Assembly (NCBI GenBank): GCA_964634875.1
Contig: CAZWKA010000001.1
Location: 37,600-101,599 of the forward strand
Source: an uncultured Gammaproteobacteria bacterium
GTDB taxonomy: Bacteria > Patescibacteriota > Patescibacteriia > Magasanikbacterales > GWA2-37-8
Length of the DNA stretch: 64,000 bases
Direction of reading: 5' to 3'
In this document: positions 3,906 through 64,000 of the stretch, one piece after another
How the letters are laid out: each line of letters starts with the position of its first letter
Numbering within the stretch: position 1 is the stretch's first letter
Translations under genes and position numbers: made by a program
Notes under the pieces: generated by a model
Database searches by the model: none
What the model was told of the DNA's origin: nothing
The model's input: the letters and a program-made list of their open reading frames with translations, nothing else

Positions 3906-3995
3906 ATGGAGTCTAGTTCACTGGACGACCCTGACCCTATCACAGTACAGCTGATCAGTCGGGGTAAGGAAACAAAAGATTTGCTTAACCCATAA
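3906..3995 (+). CDS. Unannotated 29-codon ORF (MESSSLDDPDPITVQLISRGKETKDLLNP): candidate leader/precursor peptide
   Basis: ATG..TAA in frame, absent from the 60-aa-minimum ORF track; sits between a good promoter and a terminator-like hairpin directly upstream of the ATP-grasp gene; no SD, but backbone genes here generally lack one. Confidence 0.3.
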   Translation: MESSSLDDPDPITVQLISRGKETKDLLNP

Positions 3996-4032
3996 CCCAA
4001 ACAGAGTTACCTGTTTGGGTTATTTATTTTTG
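3994..4032 (+). terminator. Intrinsic-terminator-like hairpin (possible attenuator) overlapping small-ORF stop codon
   Basis: AACCCAAACAG-agttac-CTGTTTGGGTT 11-bp perfect stem followed by ATTTATTTTTG. Confidence 0.5.
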
Positions 4033-4041
4033 TTAATTATT

Positions 4042-5319
4042 ATGGAGCGAGCGCTCAATGGTTCAACAGTGCTTTTGGTGCATGCCGGTTCATTAAGCAA
4101 GCAATTCATCCTCGAACGGGCGAAAGCGCTCGGTGTCCGCATCATTTGCTTGAACAAAAAAAAGGAAGCTTTTGCCGAGCCTTTTGTTGATCACTGGATT
4201 TTTGCTGACCTCAAAGACGAAACAAGCTGTTTTAAAAAAATTACAGAGTTTATCGTAGCTCACGCGGATATTAAAATTGATGGAGTAATTACCTTTTGGG
4301 ATGAATCCGTTGTTCTCGCCGCACACATCTCGGAACAATTTTGCTGGATAGGTATTTTGTCAAAAACAGCTGACCGGATTAAGAATAAATATGCTTTTAG
4401 GGATGCCTGCCAAACCGAGGGTATTCCCGCCCCACACCACCTCCTGCTCAATACCGAAGCTGACTTGGCGAAGGCTGATGCGGAGCTTGAATACCCAGTG
4501 GTGGTAAAACCGGTATACGGCGCCAGCAGTGCGTTTGTGGTACGCGCCGACAACCTTTCGGAATTAACGACTGTCTATAATGATCAAATTAAAAATATCC
4601 ATACGTTTTGGTTAGCACCAGAATGGAACAGTCTTCAGGTGTTGGTTGAAGAGTATATTGACGGCCAAGAAGTTGATATTGATATCCTGGTTCAGAACGG
4701 GGAAGTTAAATATATTTCGATTATTGATAATAAAGAAACCAACGAACCATTTTTTGTTGAAACAGGCTGGTCGTCTCCTTCGAGATTGGGAGCGAAAGAA
4801 CAAAAAGAACTGGAAGCGATGGCAGTTTTTACCCTGAAGGCGCTCAAGGTAGAGAATGGTTGCGTTCACTTTGAAGCGAAATATGGCAGCAAAGGTGCTG
4901 TACCGATTGAGATTAATTTGCGCATGGGCGGTGGAGAAGTGTACCTCTATTCCAAGCTCGTCTGGGGTGTTGATCTGGTTGAAAATGCCCTGAAGATTGC
5001 GCTCGGCCTGCCAGTTGTTATTGATAAGCCCGATAAACCGATCTGTCATCTGCTCTCGTATCGTTTTCTTCCGGAAAAAACCTGCAAACTGACTAAGCTC
5101 CGCGTTGATGAGGCGGTGTACGGTCAGTCCTCGGTAGTAAGTTTGTATTTTGAAAAACAAGTTGGCGATATTTTTCTAGCGCCGCCGGAAGGGTATGACC
5201 GCTGTATTGGTGTCATTACGGTAAAAGGTGAGAGCCATGTTGCCGCAGAAGAAAATTTGGCCAAAGCCCTAAAGTATATTAAATACGCCGTCGAACCACT
5301 TAATCACATCACTATTTAA
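4042..5319 (+). CDS. ATP-grasp domain ligase (L-amino-acid-ligase / carboxylate-amine ligase-like)
   Basis: ATP-grasp motifs VEEYIDGQEVDIDIL and IEINLRMGGGEV; about 425 aa from ATG 4042 (track ORF 4015 start overlaps the upstream hairpin). Confidence 0.8.
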   Translation: MERALNGSTVLLVHAGSLSKQFILERAKALGVRIICLNKKKEAFAEPFVDHWIFADLKDETSCFKKITEFIVAHADIKIDGVITFWDESVVLAAHISEQFCWIGILSKTADRIKNKYAFRDACQTEGIPAPHHLLLNTEADLAKADAELEYPVVVKPVYGASSAFVVRADNLSELTTVYNDQIKNIHTFWLAPEWNSLQVLVEEYIDGQEVDIDILVQNGEVKYISIIDNKETNEPFFVETGWSSPSRLGAKEQKELEAMAVFTLKALKVENGCVHFEAKYGSKGAVPIEINLRMGGGEVYLYSKLVWGVDLVENALKIALGLPVVIDKPDKPICHLLSYRFLPEKTCKLTKLRVDEAVYGQSSVVSLYFEKQVGDIFLAPPEGYDRCIGVITVKGESHVAAEENLAKALKYIKYAVEPLNHITI

Positions 5320-5329
5320 TACATCACGT

Positions 5330-6709
5330 ATGCATAAAAAGCAGGAAAAAATTTTAGATGTACGCGGTTCTTTTACCAAAGACGGTATTCGTATTATTGT
5401 TCGTGGGAAACGTTTTGATATTGCCTTTCCGGCGGCTATTTGGCAGAAAACACCGGCCGAAATCAAGCAGGTTTTACTTGAAAATTTAACCTTCGGTAAT
5501 ACCCACTTTTTGCCGGTGACGCTAGGGTATGATCGTATTAAATATAATATTCCACTGCCCCTCCTCGAGAGCCTCTTGTTTAGGAATCAGGCGGTATCTA
5601 TCGTAAAAGCAGAAGTGTACGACAAAGTGAAACCGGCTACGTATTTAAAAGCGTTCTTCAATACACAGTATGACTTTGCTCCCGGAGCCGGCGCACTGCC
5701 CTTTGGTCCGAAACGCCGTCAGTTCAAGAACAAAAAGCCAATTGCAATTTTACCATTTACTTTTGGTAAAGAAAGCTTGTTAACCTTTGCGCTCTGCCGT
5801 GAGCTTGGTATTAAACCTGTGCTTGTGTATTCCCAGGAACCTTCTTCGCCCTATGAAGAAACTTATAAGAAAAAACAGTTAGCGCTGTTCTCTAAAGAAT
5901 TCAAAGTTGATACTCATTTCGTAAAATACGAACCAGGTTTATTCCGCTACGATGTTGCCTTCAAAGAAAAACCAGGTACTGAAGTGGGTTGGGGGCTCCA
6001 AACCACGCTCCTGTCATGGCAGATGCTCCCTTTTGTTTTTGCCTACGGCGCCGAATATATTCTGTTTGGCAGCGAACACGCCAATAATGAGTATGAGATG
6101 AATGAAGATGGTTGGCGTGTACAGCTCTCCTACGATCAGAGCAGCTTCTTTACTATGGAGCAAGATCTGGCGGTGCGTACAGTTACGGAAGATAATTGCC
6201 GTGTCCGCACGAGTTTAGAACCAATGGAAGAAACATCTATTCTCTTCATGCTCCATACGCGCTATCCTGAAATTGGCAAATACCAGTTTTCTTGTACTGG
6301 CGAAAAACCGCTTCTCGCGGGTTCGCAGTGGTGCCATAACTGCTACAAGTGCTGGCGCATGTTCCTGATTGCCTGTGCAGTTGGTGTTGATCCGTATTCA
6401 TTTGGATTCAAGAAAGATATTTTGAATCAGACGGGAATCTTTACCAACTACTTTGGTGAAGATATCAAAAGCGGATCAAATAACGAATTAGATTTCTGTT
6501 TTTATATTCTTCACAAGAAGAATTGGCAGTCACCATATGTCGAGCTCTTCCGTAAAACAAAATTAGCTGGCCTAAAACCGTGGTCAGAATTTGTAAAAGA
6601 ATTTACAACGGTTCAACCGGAGCTTAACCTTCCTGCTGCCTACCGCAATACAATGATGAGTATCTTCAAAGAAGAGTTAAAAAATTTAAAGAAAATACTG
6701 CCTCGTTAG
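5330..6709 (+). CDS. QueC-superfamily (PP-loop-like, adenine nucleotide alpha-hydrolase) protein with degenerate P-loop and intact C-terminal Zn-binding Cys cluster; N-terminal 130-aa extension
   Basis: AILPFTFGKESLLTFAL aligns to QueC VVVFSGGQDSTTCL (SGGxDS degenerated); SC-x12-CHNCYKCWR matches QueC zinc motif C-x8-C-x2-C-x2-C-x-LR; 10-bp gap after ATP-grasp gene implies co-transcription. Confidence 0.5.
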   Translation: MHKKQEKILDVRGSFTKDGIRIIVRGKRFDIAFPAAIWQKTPAEIKQVLLENLTFGNTHFLPVTLGYDRIKYNIPLPLLESLLFRNQAVSIVKAEVYDKVKPATYLKAFFNTQYDFAPGAGALPFGPKRRQFKNKKPIAILPFTFGKESLLTFALCRELGIKPVLVYSQEPSSPYEETYKKKQLALFSKEFKVDTHFVKYEPGLFRYDVAFKEKPGTEVGWGLQTTLLSWQMLPFVFAYGAEYILFGSEHANNEYEMNEDGWRVQLSYDQSSFFTMEQDLAVRTVTEDNCRVRTSLEPMEETSILFMLHTRYPEIGKYQFSCTGEKPLLAGSQWCHNCYKCWRMFLIACAVGVDPYSFGFKKDILNQTGIFTNYFGEDIKSGSNNELDFCFYILHKKNWQSPYVELFRKTKLAGLKPWSEFVKEFTTVQPELNLPAAYRNTMMSIFKEELKNLKKILPR

Positions 6710-6793
6710 TAGAGCTAAGGTTGCAGGGTTTTGAGTTGACAGTCCAAACTTTTTGCTCTACAGTAGGGCATATTTATTGTACTTGATAATCAT

Positions 6794-28097: not shown

Positions 28098-29159
28098 TCA
28101 GAGAGGAACTATAGTCATCCAGTCGTGCGGATCGGAGTCCGGCGCGCGCTGGATGCTATGGTAGCGATCGAGCAGAAGACGTGGCACGGCATGCTCGGCG
28201 CTGGTTGGGATGAAGGCCTGGTCGCTGCCCCGGACGAGCTCGGTAACAGCACAGATGGTGGCCGCAGTGCCTGTGCCAAAGAGCGAGTGAAGGCGACCTT
28301 GACTGTATGCTTCGAAAAGCTCGTCGACGGTGAGGCGGCGTTCTTCCACTTTCCAGCCAGCTTCGCGAAGCAGAACGATCGCGGTTTCGCGCGTCTGACC
28401 CGGAAGAATGGTGCCATCGAGTTCGGGGGTAACAACAGTGTCGCCAATAACAGCGAAGAGGTTCATTGATCCCATCTCACCGCAGAACTGGTGCGTACGG
28501 TCAGTCCAGAGCACCTGCCCGTAGCCGTCTTCTTTGGCAATGGCTGTGGCATCGATCGCAGCGGCGTAGTTGGCACCGGCTTTGACCTCGCCGAGTCCGC
28601 CCTCTGATGCGCGCACATGCTCTGTTTCGACTTTGATCCTAAGACCGTTCTGGCCGTAGAGGCTCATGATCGGTGAGGCGATAACGATAAGCAAGCACTC
28701 GTTGCCCGGGTCGATGCCGAGGTAAGGCTCGGTACCGAGAAGCAGCGGGCGGATATAGAGCGAACAGCCCGGTTCCGGAAGTGCCCAGCTTGACTCGATC
28801 TTGATGTACTCGAGAATCGCCGTGGCCAGATCATGAATTTCCGGGCACGGTAGACGGAGTCTCGCGGCACTTTTTCGAAAGCGCTTGAGGTGTTCGTAGA
28901 ATCGAAATATCCGCACACGGCCATCGCTGCCCGGGAAGGCTTTAAAACCGTCAAAAGCAGTTTGCGCATAGTGAACGCCGCAGGCTGCCGGCGAAATCGA
29001 GATGTGTTGATGGGGCTGCAAATGGCACGGCCCCCAGCCACTCGTGCTCGTCCAGCGCATCACGAGCATGTGGTCGGTGAAAGTACGCCCAAAGGGGAGT
29101 GGTTTGCCGGCCACAGGCTTTTCTTTTGGCTGCAAAACAAGATCGGTAACGAACTGCAT
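28098..29159 (-). CDS. ilvE: Branched-chain amino acid aminotransferase (class IV PLP enzyme), GC-rich
   Basis: FGRTFTDHMLVM N-terminal motif, class-IV fold length 353 aa; strong SD AGGAGGTG. Confidence 0.8.
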   Translation of the reverse strand: MQFVTDLVLQPKEKPVAGKPLPFGRTFTDHMLVMRWTSTSGWGPCHLQPHQHISISPAACGVHYAQTAFDGFKAFPGSDGRVRIFRFYEHLKRFRKSAARLRLPCPEIHDLATAILEYIKIESSWALPEPGCSLYIRPLLLGTEPYLGIDPGNECLLIVIASPIMSLYGQNGLRIKVETEHVRASEGGLGEVKAGANYAAAIDATAIAKEDGYGQVLWTDRTHQFCGEMGSMNLFAVIGDTVVTPELDGTILPGQTRETAIVLLREAGWKVEERRLTVDELFEAYSQGRLHSLFGTGTAATICAVTELVRGSDQAFIPTSAEHAVPRLLLDRYHSIQRAPDSDPHDWMTIVPL

Positions 29160-34822: not shown

Positions 34823-35000
34823 AGGTTGGTGAAGAAAAAGTAATTATACATATATAACACGCGAAGCTAAGGAGCGCAACTGCCAGGGTTAATTGAAAAA
34901 AAGGATTACATAGATGGGTTAACCCTTTACAAAACTGCCATTTTGTGCTTAGCTGGTAGGACCAAGCTGATCAGTGTGATTGGCAAAACCTAGGAGGTAC

Positions 35001-36080
35001 ATGATGAAATGGTTGGTGTTGTGGAGTTTGTCTGTAGGCGCTTGCGGTGGGGTTGAGCCTGCTGAGGATCCTGGGATGTACAACTACCGCCTGGAGTTCA
35101 AGTTGCCGCGCGGGGTCGGTTTCCACAAGATCAAGATCGTTCGGGTGGGGGATGGCGCCCAGCCGGTCGAGATGCCGGGCTGTACCGCGGTTGACCCGAT
35201 CCCCGGGTGGGGCACGCTGACCTCTCACACGTGCTCGGTATGGCTGCCGACTGCAGTCCCGGGCGAGTTTAACGTCGCCTTGACGACCGGCATGACGGAA
35301 GATAACCCCTATGTGTCTGAGATGGGGTCGTATTTTACCCAGCGGCACCCGGCGCTCGGTACGCTCGATGTGTACCGCAATGGCGCCTTGTCCAAGCTGG
35401 TGTATGTGAGCAGTGCTCCGACGTCTATGGAAGGCATGAAGCCGCCCACCTACTACCATCCGAATGTCTGGGATACCGGTTCGATGTGTCCGAGCCGTTT
35501 CCCCGCCAAGAACGATCGGGGTATCTGTTCCTTCTGGTCGCCCGAGATGGCGTGTGGCACCATCGAGATCGCGAACATGAAAAATTTTACGCTGGACGTG
35601 GGAGGACTGCCGGTTGTTACGTTGCCCGAAGTGCAGACGGATGTTTACACCAAGCCGGGTGAGAGTCTGCTCGGCGTCTTCGACTTCGGCGCGGCCAAGG
35701 GGCAGTACTGCTCTTCGGTCACCGTGGATGACTTCAATCTTCGCTTCGAATATCCGTACGATACAACCGTGCCCGGGCGTGCTAACCTCGATCTCGAGCT
35801 GCGTATCGGGGAGCGCGACTACTCGGCGCCGCTCACCGCAAACGGCGGCTCGTGCCCTGACACCGGGTGCGTCAAGCACTTCGTAGCGTTCGGTCAGTCG
35901 AACCTTGACCCGTCGCGAGAAAAATTTCCAGTCGCGGTGGTGTGCAAGAATTGCCGCGGGGTCGCGATGGGTATCGAGATCACCACGATCTTCACCGGCA
36001 ACGTGCACTACCGCGTCGGAGTCGAAGAGAGCTATCGTGCCCAGCTCCCCGAGCTGAGGAGCACGGCAGTCATTCGCTAG
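35001..36080 (+). CDS. GC-rich secreted lipoprotein, hypothetical (Cys-rich, beta-rich)
   Basis: AGGAGG 5 nt upstream of ATGATG 35001; signal + lipobox LSVGACGG. Confidence 0.55.
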   Translation: MMKWLVLWSLSVGACGGVEPAEDPGMYNYRLEFKLPRGVGFHKIKIVRVGDGAQPVEMPGCTAVDPIPGWGTLTSHTCSVWLPTAVPGEFNVALTTGMTEDNPYVSEMGSYFTQRHPALGTLDVYRNGALSKLVYVSSAPTSMEGMKPPTYYHPNVWDTGSMCPSRFPAKNDRGICSFWSPEMACGTIEIANMKNFTLDVGGLPVVTLPEVQTDVYTKPGESLLGVFDFGAAKGQYCSSVTVDDFNLRFEYPYDTTVPGRANLDLELRIGERDYSAPLTANGGSCPDTGCVKHFVAFGQSNLDPSREKFPVAVVCKNCRGVAMGIEITTIFTGNVHYRVGVEESYRAQLPELRSTAVIR

Positions 36081-36196
36081 TCGCCGTCCCAATCCCCCTT
36101 TTTTGATTTTTCATCGAGGGGCGCAAAAAAACAGGCCCCTCTTCCTTTGTCTCTAAAATTTTTAGAAATAAAGGCAGGGCCTGTTTTTTATTTTTG

Positions 36197-57214: not shown

Positions 57215-59857
57215 TTATGATTTTTTCTCCTTATTTGGCTTGGCGCGACGAAATTTATCAAATAGAGCAGTCCTCGTTACCGTATTTGGCTCGCGCGTCT
57301 GTACAGCAGGAGGTTTAGGTTCGTGCTTGGGAGCGTGCTCAAGTTCCTGAAAGGCAGCGAACAGCATGCCTATCGAGATGCCTATTGTAGCTCCGTTCAA
57401 GGCTACGGAATATTTATTTTTTAAAAGACCCTGTACGGTGGGACGAGTGATGACAGTGTCCAATTTTCCGTCTTCCACCCTTAGGCGGCAGTTTTCCTGA
57501 AGGAAGTTTGGTCCATTGCCTAGTAGCGTGAGGGAACCAGCCTGCATAGCAAGCAAAAGAGAAGACGTGACGATGGCGTCTTCGATCGCAGGATTGTTCT
57601 TGAGTACATCTTTGCCGTAGAGCTCGATCGCCAGGTCGGAGAGAACTTTTTGGCCGTATAAGAAAGCGGCTACATTGTCCGCATATGCTGAAATTGCGGC
57701 TTCACTTGTAAACACGGCTGTAGCTGCGGCAATCATTTTCGATAATCGGGTGGGCAGTGCATCTTTGGTGGTTTCAAGTGCCTTAAGCAGGCTCCATTTT
57801 ACGGTTTCAGCCATGGGTTCGACACAGGGCATCTGACTGCCGAGCGCATAGGCGACTTCTTGTGCCGCTGGGCTGAGGAAGTGTTTCTCCGTTTCTTTGC
57901 GCTCAGATCCTTCCGCCCGCTCTTTCAACGTAAGAAATTTTTCGACCGCCATTTTGAGGTGCGGTTCCGATATTTCGCCGATCTGCGCGAGCGTTGCTGT
58001 TAATGTATGAGGCTGTTCGTGCAAAATCCTTTTTTCAATTAAAAGTTGTAAAATTTCTTCCTCAAGCTTTTTTAGTTCGTCGCTACGCTGCGGTTCATTT
58101 TTTTCCTGCAGCGCGCGTTCTGCTGGGCTAAGGACGAATGGCATGCTGCTGCGCAAATCCTGCACCTGCCGGGTAATTCGATCAATCGTTCCTTGGTGAT
58201 CTTTCGAAGACGTATCTGATTCGTCTTCAGCTGCCGCTGTCACCTGGGTGCGAGCAATATCCTGTTGGAGCGAAAGAAGTTCTTGGGAAATTTCACCACT
58301 CGACATTTCGAGGTGTAATTTCATGAGGCGCGCCAAAGATCCTGCATCTCCAGTTTGCGAGGCGGCAGCGATGATTTCTGGTGTAATGGCCTCGGGAAGT
58401 TTTTGTCCCAACAAAGGGGAAACTAATTTTTGAAAGCCGATATTTTCTATGTTGCGTAAGCCATCGAGTTTGCTGTCGATCCATGCTCCGATCGAAACTT
58501 CTATTCCCGGTCTTTTGAGGCGTCCAAGTGCCTCCCCGACTTTGGCAAAGCCGTCCTCATTTTTGCCCATGTCTTTCAGGGCTCCCACCAGTTCTTTGAA
58601 GGAAGATGTGTCGACCTCGCCCGTGGTAATTCCGCGAAGTGCCTGAAGCGTTTTCTTTTCCGCTTCTAAAAATTTGCCACCAAAATCGATGGGGGAGACT
58701 GTAGTAGTCCCGCTAATTGATTTGTCACCGATACCTGCTTCGTTTAACCAGCTGGCGGCTATGGTGTGCGATGCTAGTTGGCTATTGATAATTCCAGCAG
58801 CTTCAATCTGAGCCAGGCGCTTGGGATTGTTCAGGTTTTGGGCGTAGGCAACGATTTTTGGTGGATCACCAACCAGGCTAGACCCCTGAGTATTGCATGA
58901 AAGGGTAACTACCATTTGTTCGAAGTTCTCCATGAGCTTGTTGGCGCGCTCCACGCTATTTCGTTGCATTCGCTCATCATCGCGTTCCTGGCCACAGGCG
59001 GTCAGGGCGTGCCGAGCATAGGACTGTTCGAACAAGAGAGAGAGGACACTTTTCTTTTTTTCATTAAAAGCATTCTTAAGCTGGTCCGCCGCACCAGAAG
59101 AAACGTAGGTCGTTAAAAAGGGGGCCAACACTTCGGTCAAACCCAAAAGCTGAGCCGTTTGTTCTACGAGCTGTTCATTTACTTTTTCTAAATGTTCAGC
59201 CCATTCTCGTTTGTATTCAGTCGCTTCCCGGGCATCGAGACCCCGCTGTGGTCGGGCGGGTAAAAGCCCGCGTTCACTCTGGGCTGCTCCGACTTCGGCC
59301 GCCTGGCCAAAGATGCTGTCGGCGTTGATTTTTATCGCTTGGCTGGCAAAGTCGGCCGCAACGACGAGTGGAATGGTTATGGCGTAACCTTCGAGCAGTG
59401 CATGCTCCTCGTGTTTGGCCAGTTCCTGGCCTTCTTTACCGCCGCCCCATTTGAGGGCTTCGCGCCGTGCTGCATTCACCAGATTAAGTTCAATGATTGA
59501 AGCAGGGCCAAAGGAAGCGGAGCCTTCCTTGCATTTTTTTACCCATCTAAAAAACATCGCGGTGCTGGCGGCTGCGGTGCTGATATTGATGCCTTCAAAA
59601 AGGCTGTTATTACTTTCCTTAGAATCTTTTTTAGATTCGTGGTTGAAAGGGTTTAAAAGCTGCTCAGCTTTGCGTGCTGCCAGAGCTGTTGCGCCTGCTC
59701 CGGCCATTTTTAATACATCCCGTCGGCTGATGCCATGCCCATGTTCTTGAGTAGGGGGGTGGTCGCCATCATGCTTTTCTTCCGGGGTATGTACTTTCTT
59801 GTTTTTGCCTTCTTTTAAAAAAGTACCGATACTCTCCCTGAGGCCGGATAGGCGCAT
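57215..59857 (-). CDS. Large (880 aa) alpha-helical secreted protein with twin-arginine (Tat) signal, hypothetical
   Basis: SRRDVLKMAGAGATALAA Tat motif near N-terminus; no catalytic motif; C-terminal hydrophobic segment. Confidence 0.5.
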   Translation of the reverse strand: MRLSGLRESIGTFLKEGKNKKVHTPEEKHDGDHPPTQEHGHGISRRDVLKMAGAGATALAARKAEQLLNPFNHESKKDSKESNNSLFEGINISTAAASTAMFFRWVKKCKEGSASFGPASIIELNLVNAARREALKWGGGKEGQELAKHEEHALLEGYAITIPLVVAADFASQAIKINADSIFGQAAEVGAAQSERGLLPARPQRGLDAREATEYKREWAEHLEKVNEQLVEQTAQLLGLTEVLAPFLTTYVSSGAADQLKNAFNEKKKSVLSLLFEQSYARHALTACGQERDDERMQRNSVERANKLMENFEQMVVTLSCNTQGSSLVGDPPKIVAYAQNLNNPKRLAQIEAAGIINSQLASHTIAASWLNEAGIGDKSISGTTTVSPIDFGGKFLEAEKKTLQALRGITTGEVDTSSFKELVGALKDMGKNEDGFAKVGEALGRLKRPGIEVSIGAWIDSKLDGLRNIENIGFQKLVSPLLGQKLPEAITPEIIAAASQTGDAGSLARLMKLHLEMSSGEISQELLSLQQDIARTQVTAAAEDESDTSSKDHQGTIDRITRQVQDLRSSMPFVLSPAERALQEKNEPQRSDELKKLEEEILQLLIEKRILHEQPHTLTATLAQIGEISEPHLKMAVEKFLTLKERAEGSERKETEKHFLSPAAQEVAYALGSQMPCVEPMAETVKWSLLKALETTKDALPTRLSKMIAAATAVFTSEAAISAYADNVAAFLYGQKVLSDLAIELYGKDVLKNNPAIEDAIVTSSLLLAMQAGSLTLLGNGPNFLQENCRLRVEDGKLDTVITRPTVQGLLKNKYSVALNGATIGISIGMLFAAFQELEHAPKHEPKPPAVQTREPNTVTRTALFDKFRRAKPNKEKKS

Positions 59858-60322: not shown

Positions 60323-62651
<2,329 letters not shown>

Positions 62652-62654
62652 ACG

Positions 62655-64000
62655 TTATTTTTTAAAGAAATCAGTTGCCGCGGCTGCTAATTCGCTTTCA
62701 ACTTCGGGAGTTAGGGTTTTACCGGTTTCGATCGTCGTAACCAGTTGTGGTTTAAATGATTCTACGTGTTCCAAGAATTGGATTAATTTGTCGGCTACCG
62801 CTGCTGTTGGAGTTTCGTCAACATACCCTTTGAGCGTAGCGTAGAGCACGGCACATTCCTGCCACAGCGGTCGAGGACGGTTTTGTTTTTGTTTGAGGGC
62901 TTCGATAAGACGTTCGCCGCGGGTCAGTTGCTTTTTGGAAGAAGCATCAAGTTCGCTAGCAAACTGGGCAAAAGCAGCGAGTTCGTAATATTGTGCCAGG
63001 TCAAGCTTGGCGCTGCCAGACAATTTTTTCATGATGTGAGTTTGGGCGGCCGAACCAACGCGTGATACCGAAATACCAACGTTAATAGCCGGACGGATGC
63101 CGCGGTAGAAAAGACCGGGTTCAAGGAAGATCTGACCATCGGTAATGGAAATAACGTTGGTTGGAATATAGGCAGAAACGTCACCAGCCTGCGTTTCAAT
63201 AATAGGCAGAGCCGTGATAGAACCGCCGCCATGTTCGGGATTAAGTTTTACAGCGCGTTCGAGCAAGCGAGAGTGAATATAAAACACGTCACCAGGGTAC
63301 GCTTCGCGACCTGGGGGTTTGCGCAGCAAGAGTGATACTTCACGGTAAGCGATGGCATGCTTTGATAAATCATCGTAGACAACCAGCACATCTTTTCCTT
63401 GTGCTAGGAAAAATTCGGCAATTGCTGCTCCGGCATACGGCGCAAGAAACTGCACAATGGCTGGGTCTCCGGCCGAAGCGGAAACCACGACCGTGTACTG
63501 CATCGCTCCAGTATCGGTGAGTGTTTTGATGACTTGAGCGGTTTTAGAGTCGCGTTGGCCGACAGCAACGTACACACAGATCATGTTTTGGCCTTTCTGA
63601 TTGATGATGGTATCAAGGGCAATGGCAGTTTTACCGGTCTGACGGTCGCCGATAATAAGTTCACGTTGTCCGCGACCAATAGGAATGAGGGAATCGATTG
63701 CCAGGATACCGGTTTGAACCGGTTGTGAAACGGACTCGCGAGCCATAACACCGGCGGCTACGCGTTCAAGTGGCATTAAGACAGTTTTCTGAAGTGGGGG
63801 CTGTTCGTCGAGGGGCTTTCCGAGCGGACTAACAACGCGGCCGATAATCTGGTCGCTGACCGGGATAGCAAGGGATTTTCCGGTGCGGACGGCTGCAAAC
63901 CCGGTGCGGAGCTCGATAGAAGGATCAAGGCTAACGGCGATATTGATATCACGGCCGACCTGGAGCACCACCGCTTCAGTACCGGTTTCTTCGATAGTAA
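62655..64000 (-). CDS. atpA: F0F1 ATP synthase alpha subunit (5' end beyond window)
   Basis: P-loop GDRQTGKTAIA; N-terminal about 55 aa missing, gene runs off the window. Confidence 0.9.
   Translation of the reverse strand, partial: TIEETGTEAVVLQVGRDINIAVSLDPSIELRTGFAAVRTGKSLAIPVSDQIIGRVVSPLGKPLDEQPPLQKTVLMPLERVAAGVMARESVSQPVQTGILAIDSLIPIGRGQRELIIGDRQTGKTAIALDTIINQKGQNMICVYVAVGQRDSKTAQVIKTLTDTGAMQYTVVVSASAGDPAIVQFLAPYAGAAIAEFFLAQGKDVLVVYDDLSKHAIAYREVSLLLRKPPGREAYPGDVFYIHSRLLERAVKLNPEHGGGSITALPIIETQAGDVSAYIPTNVISITDGQIFLEPGLFYRGIRPAINVGISVSRVGSAAQTHIMKKLSGSAKLDLAQYYELAAFAQFASELDASSKKQLTRGERLIEALKQKQNRPRPLWQECAVLYATLKGYVDETPTAAVADKLIQFLEHVESFKPQLVTTIETGKTLTPEVESELAAAATDFFKK

Follow-up and report, generated by a model that had tools for sequence, protein, structure and literature searches.

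This study concerns a gene pair in a 64,000-nucleotide stretch of DNA (contig CAZWKA010000001.1, positions 37,600 to 101,599; G+C content 49%), which we refer to as the window and within which all positions are given. The second gene of the pair (5330..6709, + strand) is an ATG-to-TAG open reading frame (ORF) encoding a 459-amino-acid (aa) PP-loop protein of QueC-like fold that we call MurL-like, after its nearest named relative. Its product is identical to a protein in public data (P0001) and has its nearest relatives (74% identity) in metagenome-assembled genomes (MAGs) of Candidatus Magasanikiibacteriota, which places the source of the window among the Patescibacteria (candidate phyla radiation). 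The first gene (4042..5319, + strand) encodes a single-module ATP-grasp ligase of the L-amino-acid ligase (LAL) type. It shares the ATPgrasp_N, ATP-grasp_4 and LAL_C2 architecture (Pfam) with the LALs BL00235, RizA and BacD/YwfE, and its best sequence relatives in the PDB are BL00235 (E 2.4e-21), RizA and BacD; however, it scores under every curated equivalog cut-off. We take the ATG at 4042 as the probable start, since a longer TTG ORF from 4015 overlaps a terminator-like hairpin with a 13-bp stem and a T-run (3992..4023, + strand) that lies directly 5' of the ATP-grasp start. The ATP-grasp stop codon (5317-5319) and the MurL-like start are separated by a gap of 11 bp, and this gene order places the two genes in one operon. 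Since the partner is a LAL-type ligase, the substrate of the MurL-like enzyme is probably a peptide; an earlier annotation made from the letters alone (hereafter the sequence-only reading) had named ligation or transfer onto a peptide or protein as one possibility. Downstream, between the MurL-like stop and a NIF3-like gene, we found a sigma-70-like promoter match (TTGACA-17-TACAGT; 6736..6764, + strand) that agrees at 10/12 consensus positions and is a consensus match only. The upstream hairpin with its T-run and this promoter-like site suggest a functional unit of two genes that ends before the NIF3-like gene. An isoleucyl-tRNA synthetase (IleRS) gene lies upstream of the pair, and genes for RuvA and an SPFH protein are also nearby.

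To place the MurL-like protein in a family, we collected its homologs. A first search recovered 111, and an exhaustive profile search covering 1.84 billion representative proteins returned 1515 proteins at E<=1e-3, of which 558 reached E<=1e-10 and 180 reached E<=1e-30. All are named "hypothetical protein" in their sources. Their hosts include members of the candidate phyla radiation (CPR; Magasanik-, Peregrini-, Komeili-, Roizman-, Gottesman-, Jacksonbacteria and others), DPANN archaea (Woese-, Aenigm-, Nano- and Iainarchaeota), Bathyarchaeota, Asgard archaea and Omnitrophica. We examined gene neighborhoods in 80 loci from species-representative genomes plus contigs of individual homologs; counts are given over 81 loci. 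Neighboring ORFs were labeled by phmmer against a reference panel of 16 proteins, and many remained unlabeled.

The MurL-like gene travels with an ATP-grasp gene across the family. The two are immediately adjacent in 46 of the 81 loci and lie within 3 genes of each other in 56; ATP-grasp genes make up 32% of adjacent ORFs versus 0.7% of ORFs more than 3 genes away (Fisher p 8e-32). In the majority of related CPR loci, unlike the LALs mentioned above, the partner carries a second, fused ATP-grasp module that is Ddl-like, giving a double ATP-grasp protein of ~800 aa, and the ATP-grasp protein of the window is 40% identical to the N-terminal, LAL-like half of that protein. Other neighbors recur as well: an enolase-superfamily protein with L-Ala-D/L-Glu epimerase as its best match (16 loci), a LysA-like pyridoxal phosphate (PLP) decarboxylase (13), a ~340-aa protein of unknown function (12), a KamA-family aminomutase (5), a third ATP-grasp, a FemAB-like GNAT, LD-carboxypeptidase and DUF1611, and in archaeal loci a Ddl-like ATP-grasp gene and ThiF. 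These recurrent neighbors are enzymes of small-peptide, D-residue or C-terminal-activation chemistry.

We next modeled the 459-aa protein with AlphaFold2 from a 73-sequence alignment and obtained a confident prediction (mean predicted local distance difference test score (pLDDT) 95.6; predicted TM-score 0.94). The model begins with a domain of ~135 residues (~residues 1-135; 5330..5734, + strand) in which three beta strands are followed by helices. Here the 130-aa N-terminal extension of the sequence-only reading proved real: the domain precedes the Rossmann-like core, is predicted with pLDDT 94-99, except for 82 at residues 1-10 and 91 at 121-130, and is conserved, with G19 invariant and P34, W38, N52, T58, Y72 and P77 near-invariant in the alignment. 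It is followed by a Rossmann-like PP-loop domain (~residues 138-316), a Cys4 knuckle (residues 321-343) and a C-terminal helical domain of ~115 aa (~residues 344-459).

Foldseek comparison of the model with the PDB returned QatC, QueC, YcfA and Cap9 as top matches. QatC (9y02_B) was best overall (E 6.5e-6); QueC (2pg3 and 3bl5) matched with E-values of 5e-5 to 4e-4 and target-normalized TM-scores of 0.60-0.65, YcfA (9kq7 and related entries) with E-values of 6.2e-4 and weaker, and Cap9 (9nto_B) with a target-normalized TM-score of 0.72. Thus the best solved matches are QueC-type PP-loop enzymes that adenylate carboxylates. Other PP-loop ATPases follow, with MnmA, TtuA, argininosuccinate synthase (ArgG) and GMP synthetase at lower ranks, and about 40 of the top 50 matches belong to this class. 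At the level of the fold, the model has the Rossmann-like core, the beta1/alpha1 phosphate loop and the structural similarity that characterize the PP-loop ATP pyrophosphatase superfamily. Model and matches support a QueC-like PP-loop fold, in agreement with the sequence-only reading. Sequence and profile searches of the PDB with the MurL-like protein gave nothing meaningful. For asparagine-synthetase-like lasso cyclases, which the sequence-only reading had named for structural comparison together with QueC, QatC and Cap9, there was no Asn_synthase match in Pfam or NCBIfam and none among the top 50 Foldseek matches; the nearest named relative is MurL instead.

The resemblance to QueC raises the alternative that the protein is a genuine QueC or another 7-deazaguanine enzyme, acting in preQ0 synthesis or in QatC/Cap9-like deazaguanylation. 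QueC (3BL5, 2PG3) shares the PP-loop Rossmann-like core and, C-terminal to it, the Cys4 zinc knuckle, and it adenylates a carboxylate; 2 of the 73 family members have faint, sub-threshold matches to Pfam QueC (best E 0.0044). However, the 459-aa protein lies outside the QueC sequence family: it matched no Pfam family at E<=0.1 and so fell short of the gathering score of PF06508. With its extra 135-aa N-terminal and ~115-aa helical C-terminal domains it is about twice as long as QueC, its loop reads TFGKES rather than SGGxDS, and its first cysteine spacing is x12 rather than the x9 of E. coli QueC. It also lacks a queuosine gene context, as queD, queE, queF and tgt were absent from its neighbors in the window and from the immediate labeled neighbors in the 81 loci, many neighbors being unlabeled, and no CD-NTase or Qat partner was present among the neighbors examined here and in related loci. 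We therefore regard a QueC-type function as remote. The suggestion in the sequence-only reading of a chemistry other than nitrile synthesis was borne out in that no family test identified the protein as a nitrile synthase.

QatC and Cap9, QueC-fold enzymes repurposed for a protein or peptide partner, are the best structural matches, but the global superposition on QatC is poor (TM ~0.4, root-mean-square deviation ~10 Å), and the genomic context of the MurL-like gene is biosynthetic, with ATP-grasp ligases, not defensive. We rejected membership in QatABCD or type IV CBASS, as there was no PADLOC match at E<=1 and there were no Qat, CD-NTase or Cap10 genes among the neighbors examined. The defense-system reading was discarded because the PADLOC scan gave no match to QatC or Cap9; no defense-type operon was present either.

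The model places the predicted pyrophosphate-binding loop, T144-F145-G146-K147-E148-S149 (5759..5776, + strand), between strand beta1 (138-142) and helix alpha1 (147-159), and it is these residues that correspond to SGGxDS when the two are aligned on beta1 and alpha1. The loop departs from the canonical S-G-G-x-D-S of QueC in that the first glycine is replaced by phenylalanine; the remaining specified positions are kept or conservatively replaced. The pattern [ST]-x-G-K-[DE]-S is present in 305 of 314 full-length family members, most often as SFGKDS (94), SFGKES (72), TFGKES (71) or TFGKDS (42), with S-F-G-K-D-S as the family consensus. In homologs, faint matches to PP-loop families (QueC, PAPS_reduct) cover the loop region. 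Because only the first glycine is replaced, and because G146, K147 and S149 are invariant among the aligned homologs, TFGKES is a PP-loop variant peculiar to this family, not a degenerate loop. This corrects the sequence-only reading on several points. It had reported both glycines missing and had placed AILPFTFGKESLLTFAL at residues 135-150, where the segment in fact spans residues 139-155. Its argument that a remodeled P-loop implies new chemistry is accordingly weak for a loop this close to canonical.

The phenylalanine in the loop could be taken as a sign that the protein is a non-catalytic scaffold or regulator that kept the PP-loop fold and lost the use of ATP. Yet G146, K147, E/D148, S149, E249 and Y312 are invariant or nearly so in hundreds of sequences, down to ~27% identity, which is the pattern of an active enzyme, and we consider loss of catalysis highly unlikely. 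K147, E249 and Y312 are among the polar residues that are invariant in the alignment.

We then turned to the cysteine cluster that follows the core. The motif S321-C322-x12-C335-x2-C338-x2-C341-W-R343 (6290..6358, + strand) is a predicted QueC-like structural zinc site, and its sequence conforms to the C-x(n)-C-x2-C-x2-C pattern of the QueC Cys4 zinc site. The four cysteines are invariant in alignments of 73-105 homologs (27-74% identity), and 313 of the 314 full-length family members carry the cluster, 248 of them with the x12 spacing, far above chance. The SC-x12-C-x2-C-x2-C-x-R motif described in the sequence-only reading is thus correct and is a fixed feature of the family. An hhalign comparison of the family with one QueC sequence, that of E. 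coli, had low significance (probability 1.5%, E 0.034) and was colinear over the Cys cluster (TCYNG..CGHCAAC). The metal held by this knuckle is probably zinc. In the homolog P0241, the NCBIfam model of MurL matches precisely the stretch ...RWCHNCPRCARAF..., and this match makes it appear that genuine MurL also has the C-x2-C-x-[KR]-C motif.

Another alternative is a sulfur-transfer or RNA-modifying enzyme of the TtuA/MnmA/ThiI type, in which the cysteine cluster would hold an Fe-S center and the position next to IleRS would point to a tRNA as substrate. MnmA, TtuA and their kin do appear lower in the Foldseek list, homologs have faint matches to trmU and PAPS reductase, and IleRS is encoded upstream in 7 loci. 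However, only one CPR lineage shows the IleRS linkage, while linkage to ATP-grasp genes extends across the family. Moreover, the cysteine spacing fits the QueC zinc site, the Pfam scan detected no THUMP or PUA RNA-binding domain, and no sulfur-carrier or cysteine-desulfurase gene was present among the scanned neighbors. We judge an enzyme of this type to be very unlikely.

The sole named family recovered by profile comparison was MurL (NCBIfam NF041275), to our knowledge the only ATP-driven, one-way peptide epimerase. MurL is paired with the Mur-family ligase MurD2, which acts on a UDP-sugar peptide. The match of the 459-aa protein itself to the MurL model is marginal (E 0.069), with residues 225-347 aligned to model positions 213-337. 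By contrast with this marginal match, homologs that are 30-35% identical to the 459-aa protein match MurL colinearly over most of their length. For example, P0100 (32% identical) matches with E 3.5e-13, its residues 43-435 covering model positions 73-445 of 447, and further matches come from P0084 (E 6e-12) and P0107 (E 4e-9). Altogether 41 of the 73 aligned family members match the model (best E 8e-14). Consistent with these findings, Pfam PF26298, which a context look-up names MurL_epimerase_C, is precomputed on several family members.

Similarity to MurL extends to length (a 447-position model compared with 459 aa) and to the order of elements, as the colinear matches in family members begin in the N-terminal domain, take in the PP-loop region and W-C-x2-C-x-[KR]-C, and reach the C-terminus. 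Because position 73 of the MurL model aligns at residue 43 of P0100 and the PP-loop is comparably placed in both, the N-terminal domain is apparently common to the MurL-like protein and MurL. The two are also alike in being encoded beside a ligase that builds the peptide bond of the C-terminal residue that would be acted on. They differ in their hosts, which for MurL are Xanthomonadales, Alphaproteobacteria and actinomycetes, in contrast to the CPR, DPANN and other uncultured lineages of this family, and the MurL-like gene has no evident UDP-sugar context. These comparisons suggest that the family is a distant sister of MurL and not its ortholog, and that the 459-aa protein represents a putative new and highly divergent form of MurL-type PP-loop enzyme, with another partner and other hosts. 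A homolog search seeded with the most MurL-like members yielded only further hypothetical proteins from this family and none named MurL, and a tblastn search of plasmids with P0100 gave no match. In the open-access literature we found no paper on the structure or fold of MurL, on this protein or on ATP-grasp/PP-loop epimerase pairs in CPR.

MurL is an ATP-dependent peptide C-terminal L-to-D epimerase (PMC5808125). It requires ATP and Mg, forms AMP and works only from L to D, and adenylation of the terminal alpha-carboxylate has been proposed for it; reviews state that it "lacks known conserved domains" (PMC5808125; PMC8788868). A QueC-type fold with its carboxylate-adenylation chemistry would fit both the ATP/Mg requirement and the formation of AMP. 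On this basis we propose that the MurL-like enzyme adenylates the C-terminal carboxylate of the ATP-grasp ligase's product and inverts that residue, a reading to which we assign a probability of roughly 45%. The ligase would first join two L-amino acids, or an L-amino acid to a small acid, giving a product (a peptide or an N-acyl amino acid) whose C-terminal alpha-carboxylate is free. The PP-loop enzyme would then bind ATP/Mg and adenylate this carboxylate, with pyrophosphate leaving through the TFGKES loop. In the activated, N-acylated residue the C-alpha proton would be acidified and could be lost directly or via an oxazolone; C-terminally activated peptides are prone to epimerize, and it is from this behavior that we infer the oxazolone route. 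An active-site base and acid, for which K147, E249 and Y312 are candidates, would reprotonate the opposite face. Finally, hydrolysis of the adenylate would release AMP and the L,D-peptide, and the ATP spent would make the conversion from L to D one-way. Such logic would explain both the need for a ligase in the first step and the joint occurrence of ATP-grasp and MurL-like genes.

Several observations weigh against this proposal. The link of the 459-aa protein to MurL is transitive, through its homologs, and the scores are far below the MurL equivalog cut-off of 700 bits: 11.6 bits for the 459-aa protein and ~49 bits for the best family member. In place of MurD2, the partner is an L-amino-acid ligase of the ATP-grasp class, and no Mur-type ligase was found beside the MurL-like gene among the labeled neighbors in the 81 loci. 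No ATP-grasp gene lies nearby in 25 of the 81 loci. In 16 loci the enolase-superfamily dipeptide epimerase looks redundant if the MurL-like enzyme itself epimerizes, unless the two act on different centers. PP-loop enzymes, moreover, end in amidation, thiolation or transfer more often than in epimerization. In addition, the mechanism of MurL is itself described as unclear (PMC8788868).

The tendency toward amidation bears on the main rival explanation, in which the MurL-like enzyme is a C-terminal amidotransferase or ligase and the adenylated ATP-grasp product is attacked by ammonia or by an amine (an amino acid, a polyamine or a protein N-terminus) to form an amide. The same amide-forming chemistry is found in the first half-reaction of QueC, in Cap9/QatC, in asparagine synthetase and in WbuX-type amidotransferases, and amide formation is the default outcome of the QueC-type fold. 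QatC, QueC, YcfA and Cap9, the top fold matches, all adenylate carboxylates. Cap9 of type IV CBASS couples a carboxylate to the N-terminus of a protein by the mechanism of QueC, and two family members match the WbuX N-acetyl-sugar amidotransferase model (best E 5.8e-8). Yet, among named families, colinear profile matches over nearly the full length were obtained with MurL alone, an epimerase. Furthermore, no glutaminase or ammonia-donor subunit was adjacent among the neighbors examined, the PADLOC scan and operon context speak against kinship with QatC and Cap9, and the extra ATP-grasp ligases in related clusters already provide amide bonds. We consider amide formation doubtful but live. The ligation or transfer proposed in the sequence-only reading thus stands as a rival and is not the best-supported outcome, given that the nearest named relative is an epimerase.

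If C-terminal epimerization is indeed the outcome, a broader view can be put forward tentatively, as an idea we think unlikely: that a racemase-free route to D-residue peptides is widespread in CPR, DPANN, Bathyarchaeota and Asgard archaea, with the ATP-grasp/MurL-like pair as its minimal form, and that MurL belongs to the QueC/PP-loop superfamily. In such a route the ligase would build an all-L peptide and the PP-loop enzyme would flip its C-terminal residue at the expense of ATP. The products in CPR could feed the stem peptide of the cell wall, and those in archaea would be a new class of small D-peptides. Ligase-then-epimerase logic would then reach beyond Xanthomonas peptidoglycan to hundreds of ultra-small, host-dependent lineages, in which the supply of D-amino acids and the building of envelope peptides are poorly understood. 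Through this family, the MurL lineage would also be connected with the PP-loop fold of QueC type, providing a mechanistic frame and a set of invariant residues. Even as an amidoligase, the enzyme would add a new functional branch to the QueC-like enzymes.

The loci differ in the genes that accompany the pair. A recurrent six-gene CPR cluster (L005/L065, 4524-12833; also L027, L028, L062 and L026) encodes the double ATP-grasp protein, the MurL-like protein, the enolase-superfamily protein that best matches L-Ala-D/L-Glu epimerase, a ~340-370-aa protein with a faint DegT/PseC-like match, an MfnD/PylC-like third ATP-grasp and the LysA-like PLP decarboxylase. Judged from its gene content, the cluster looks like a pathway to a small peptide with D-residues and a decarboxylation step. 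The window has only the minimal, two-gene version. In six archaeal loci (L056, L064, L069, L074, L082 and L084) the order is a Ddl-like ATP-grasp of ~350 aa, the MurL-like protein and a ThiF-family, E1-like adenylyltransferase of ~315-330 aa; ThiF likewise adenylates C-terminal carboxylates. In one locus from Magasanikbacteria, the gene just upstream of the MurL-like gene encodes an LD-carboxypeptidase (Peptidase_S66; L022, 6994-7998), which hints at a link to murein-peptide chemistry. In two close relatives with 55-58% identity (L013, 6403-7980; L014, 1675-3276), the usual place of the ATP-grasp gene upstream of the MurL-like gene is taken by a gene for a 525-533-aa protein that has no Pfam or NCBIfam match and no similarity to the ATP-grasp protein; in L013 an ATP-grasp gene is located on the opposite strand, one gene further off.

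Two MurL-like paralogs lie side by side in 21 of the 81 loci, often with no ATP-grasp gene in view and usually with none within 8 kb. Such pairs are found in Gottesmanbacteria/Microgenomates (L044, L045, L048, L050, L058, L060, L067, L078 and L087), where those of Gottesmanbacteria are convergent and encode proteins of ~487 and ~457 aa, and in Woese-/Nanoarchaeia (L042, L070 and L073), where the DPANN pairs are tandem, encode proteins of ~442 and ~445 aa and are followed by a gene for a DUF1611 protein. Paired paralogs may form a heteromeric enzyme.

In the leader that separates the IleRS and ATP-grasp genes, a small ORF (3906..3995, + strand; 29 aa, MESSSLDDPDPITVQ...) is called as a gene on the public contig and is a candidate leader peptide; whether it belongs to the ATP-grasp/MurL-like system is uncertain. 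An acidic-proline motif, [DE][DE]P[DE]P, and the hairpin that follows are kept in all four loci with the IleRS/ATP-grasp/MurL-like order, namely the window and three relatives (L011, 6555-6690; L012, 4930-5030; L003, 5493-5590), and both are absent 5' of the ATP-grasp gene in 23 other loci. The stem sequence ATAACCCAA...TTGGGTTAT is conserved in the three relatives, and the C-termini of the leader peptides are not conserved among the four loci. The hairpin could mark the operon's upstream limit or act as an attenuator. The leader is a candidate leader-peptide attenuator with Asp, Glu and Pro codons, or it may hold a gene for a small peptide. An Rfam scan detected no riboswitch or T-box in the leader or elsewhere in the window and assigned no family to the hairpin.

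Two further genes of the window were considered and set aside. The NIF3-like gene was rejected as a third component of the system and its proximity put down to synteny, as it is linked in 6 of the 81 loci, all of one lineage, and has its own promoter-like site. A class IV aminotransferase (28098-29159), considered as a possible D-amino-acid transaminase, was rejected as a branched-chain aminotransferase. Many CPR-type loci (L013, L025, L027 and others) sit in MAGs titled "uncultured Gammaproteobacteria bacterium", "uncultured Pseudomonadales bacterium" or "uncultured Vicinamibacterales bacterium". The gene order in these MAGs (IleRS, MurL-like, NIF3-like, RuvA) fits Magasanikbacteria, and the taxonomy in the titles looks unreliable. 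Elsewhere in the window, two long ORFs, one of 373 aa (34971-36092, - strand) and one of 880 aa (57215-59857, - strand), matched no Pfam family at E<=1e-5; the latter adjoins genes for the alpha and beta subunits of an F-type ATP synthase (60323-63971).

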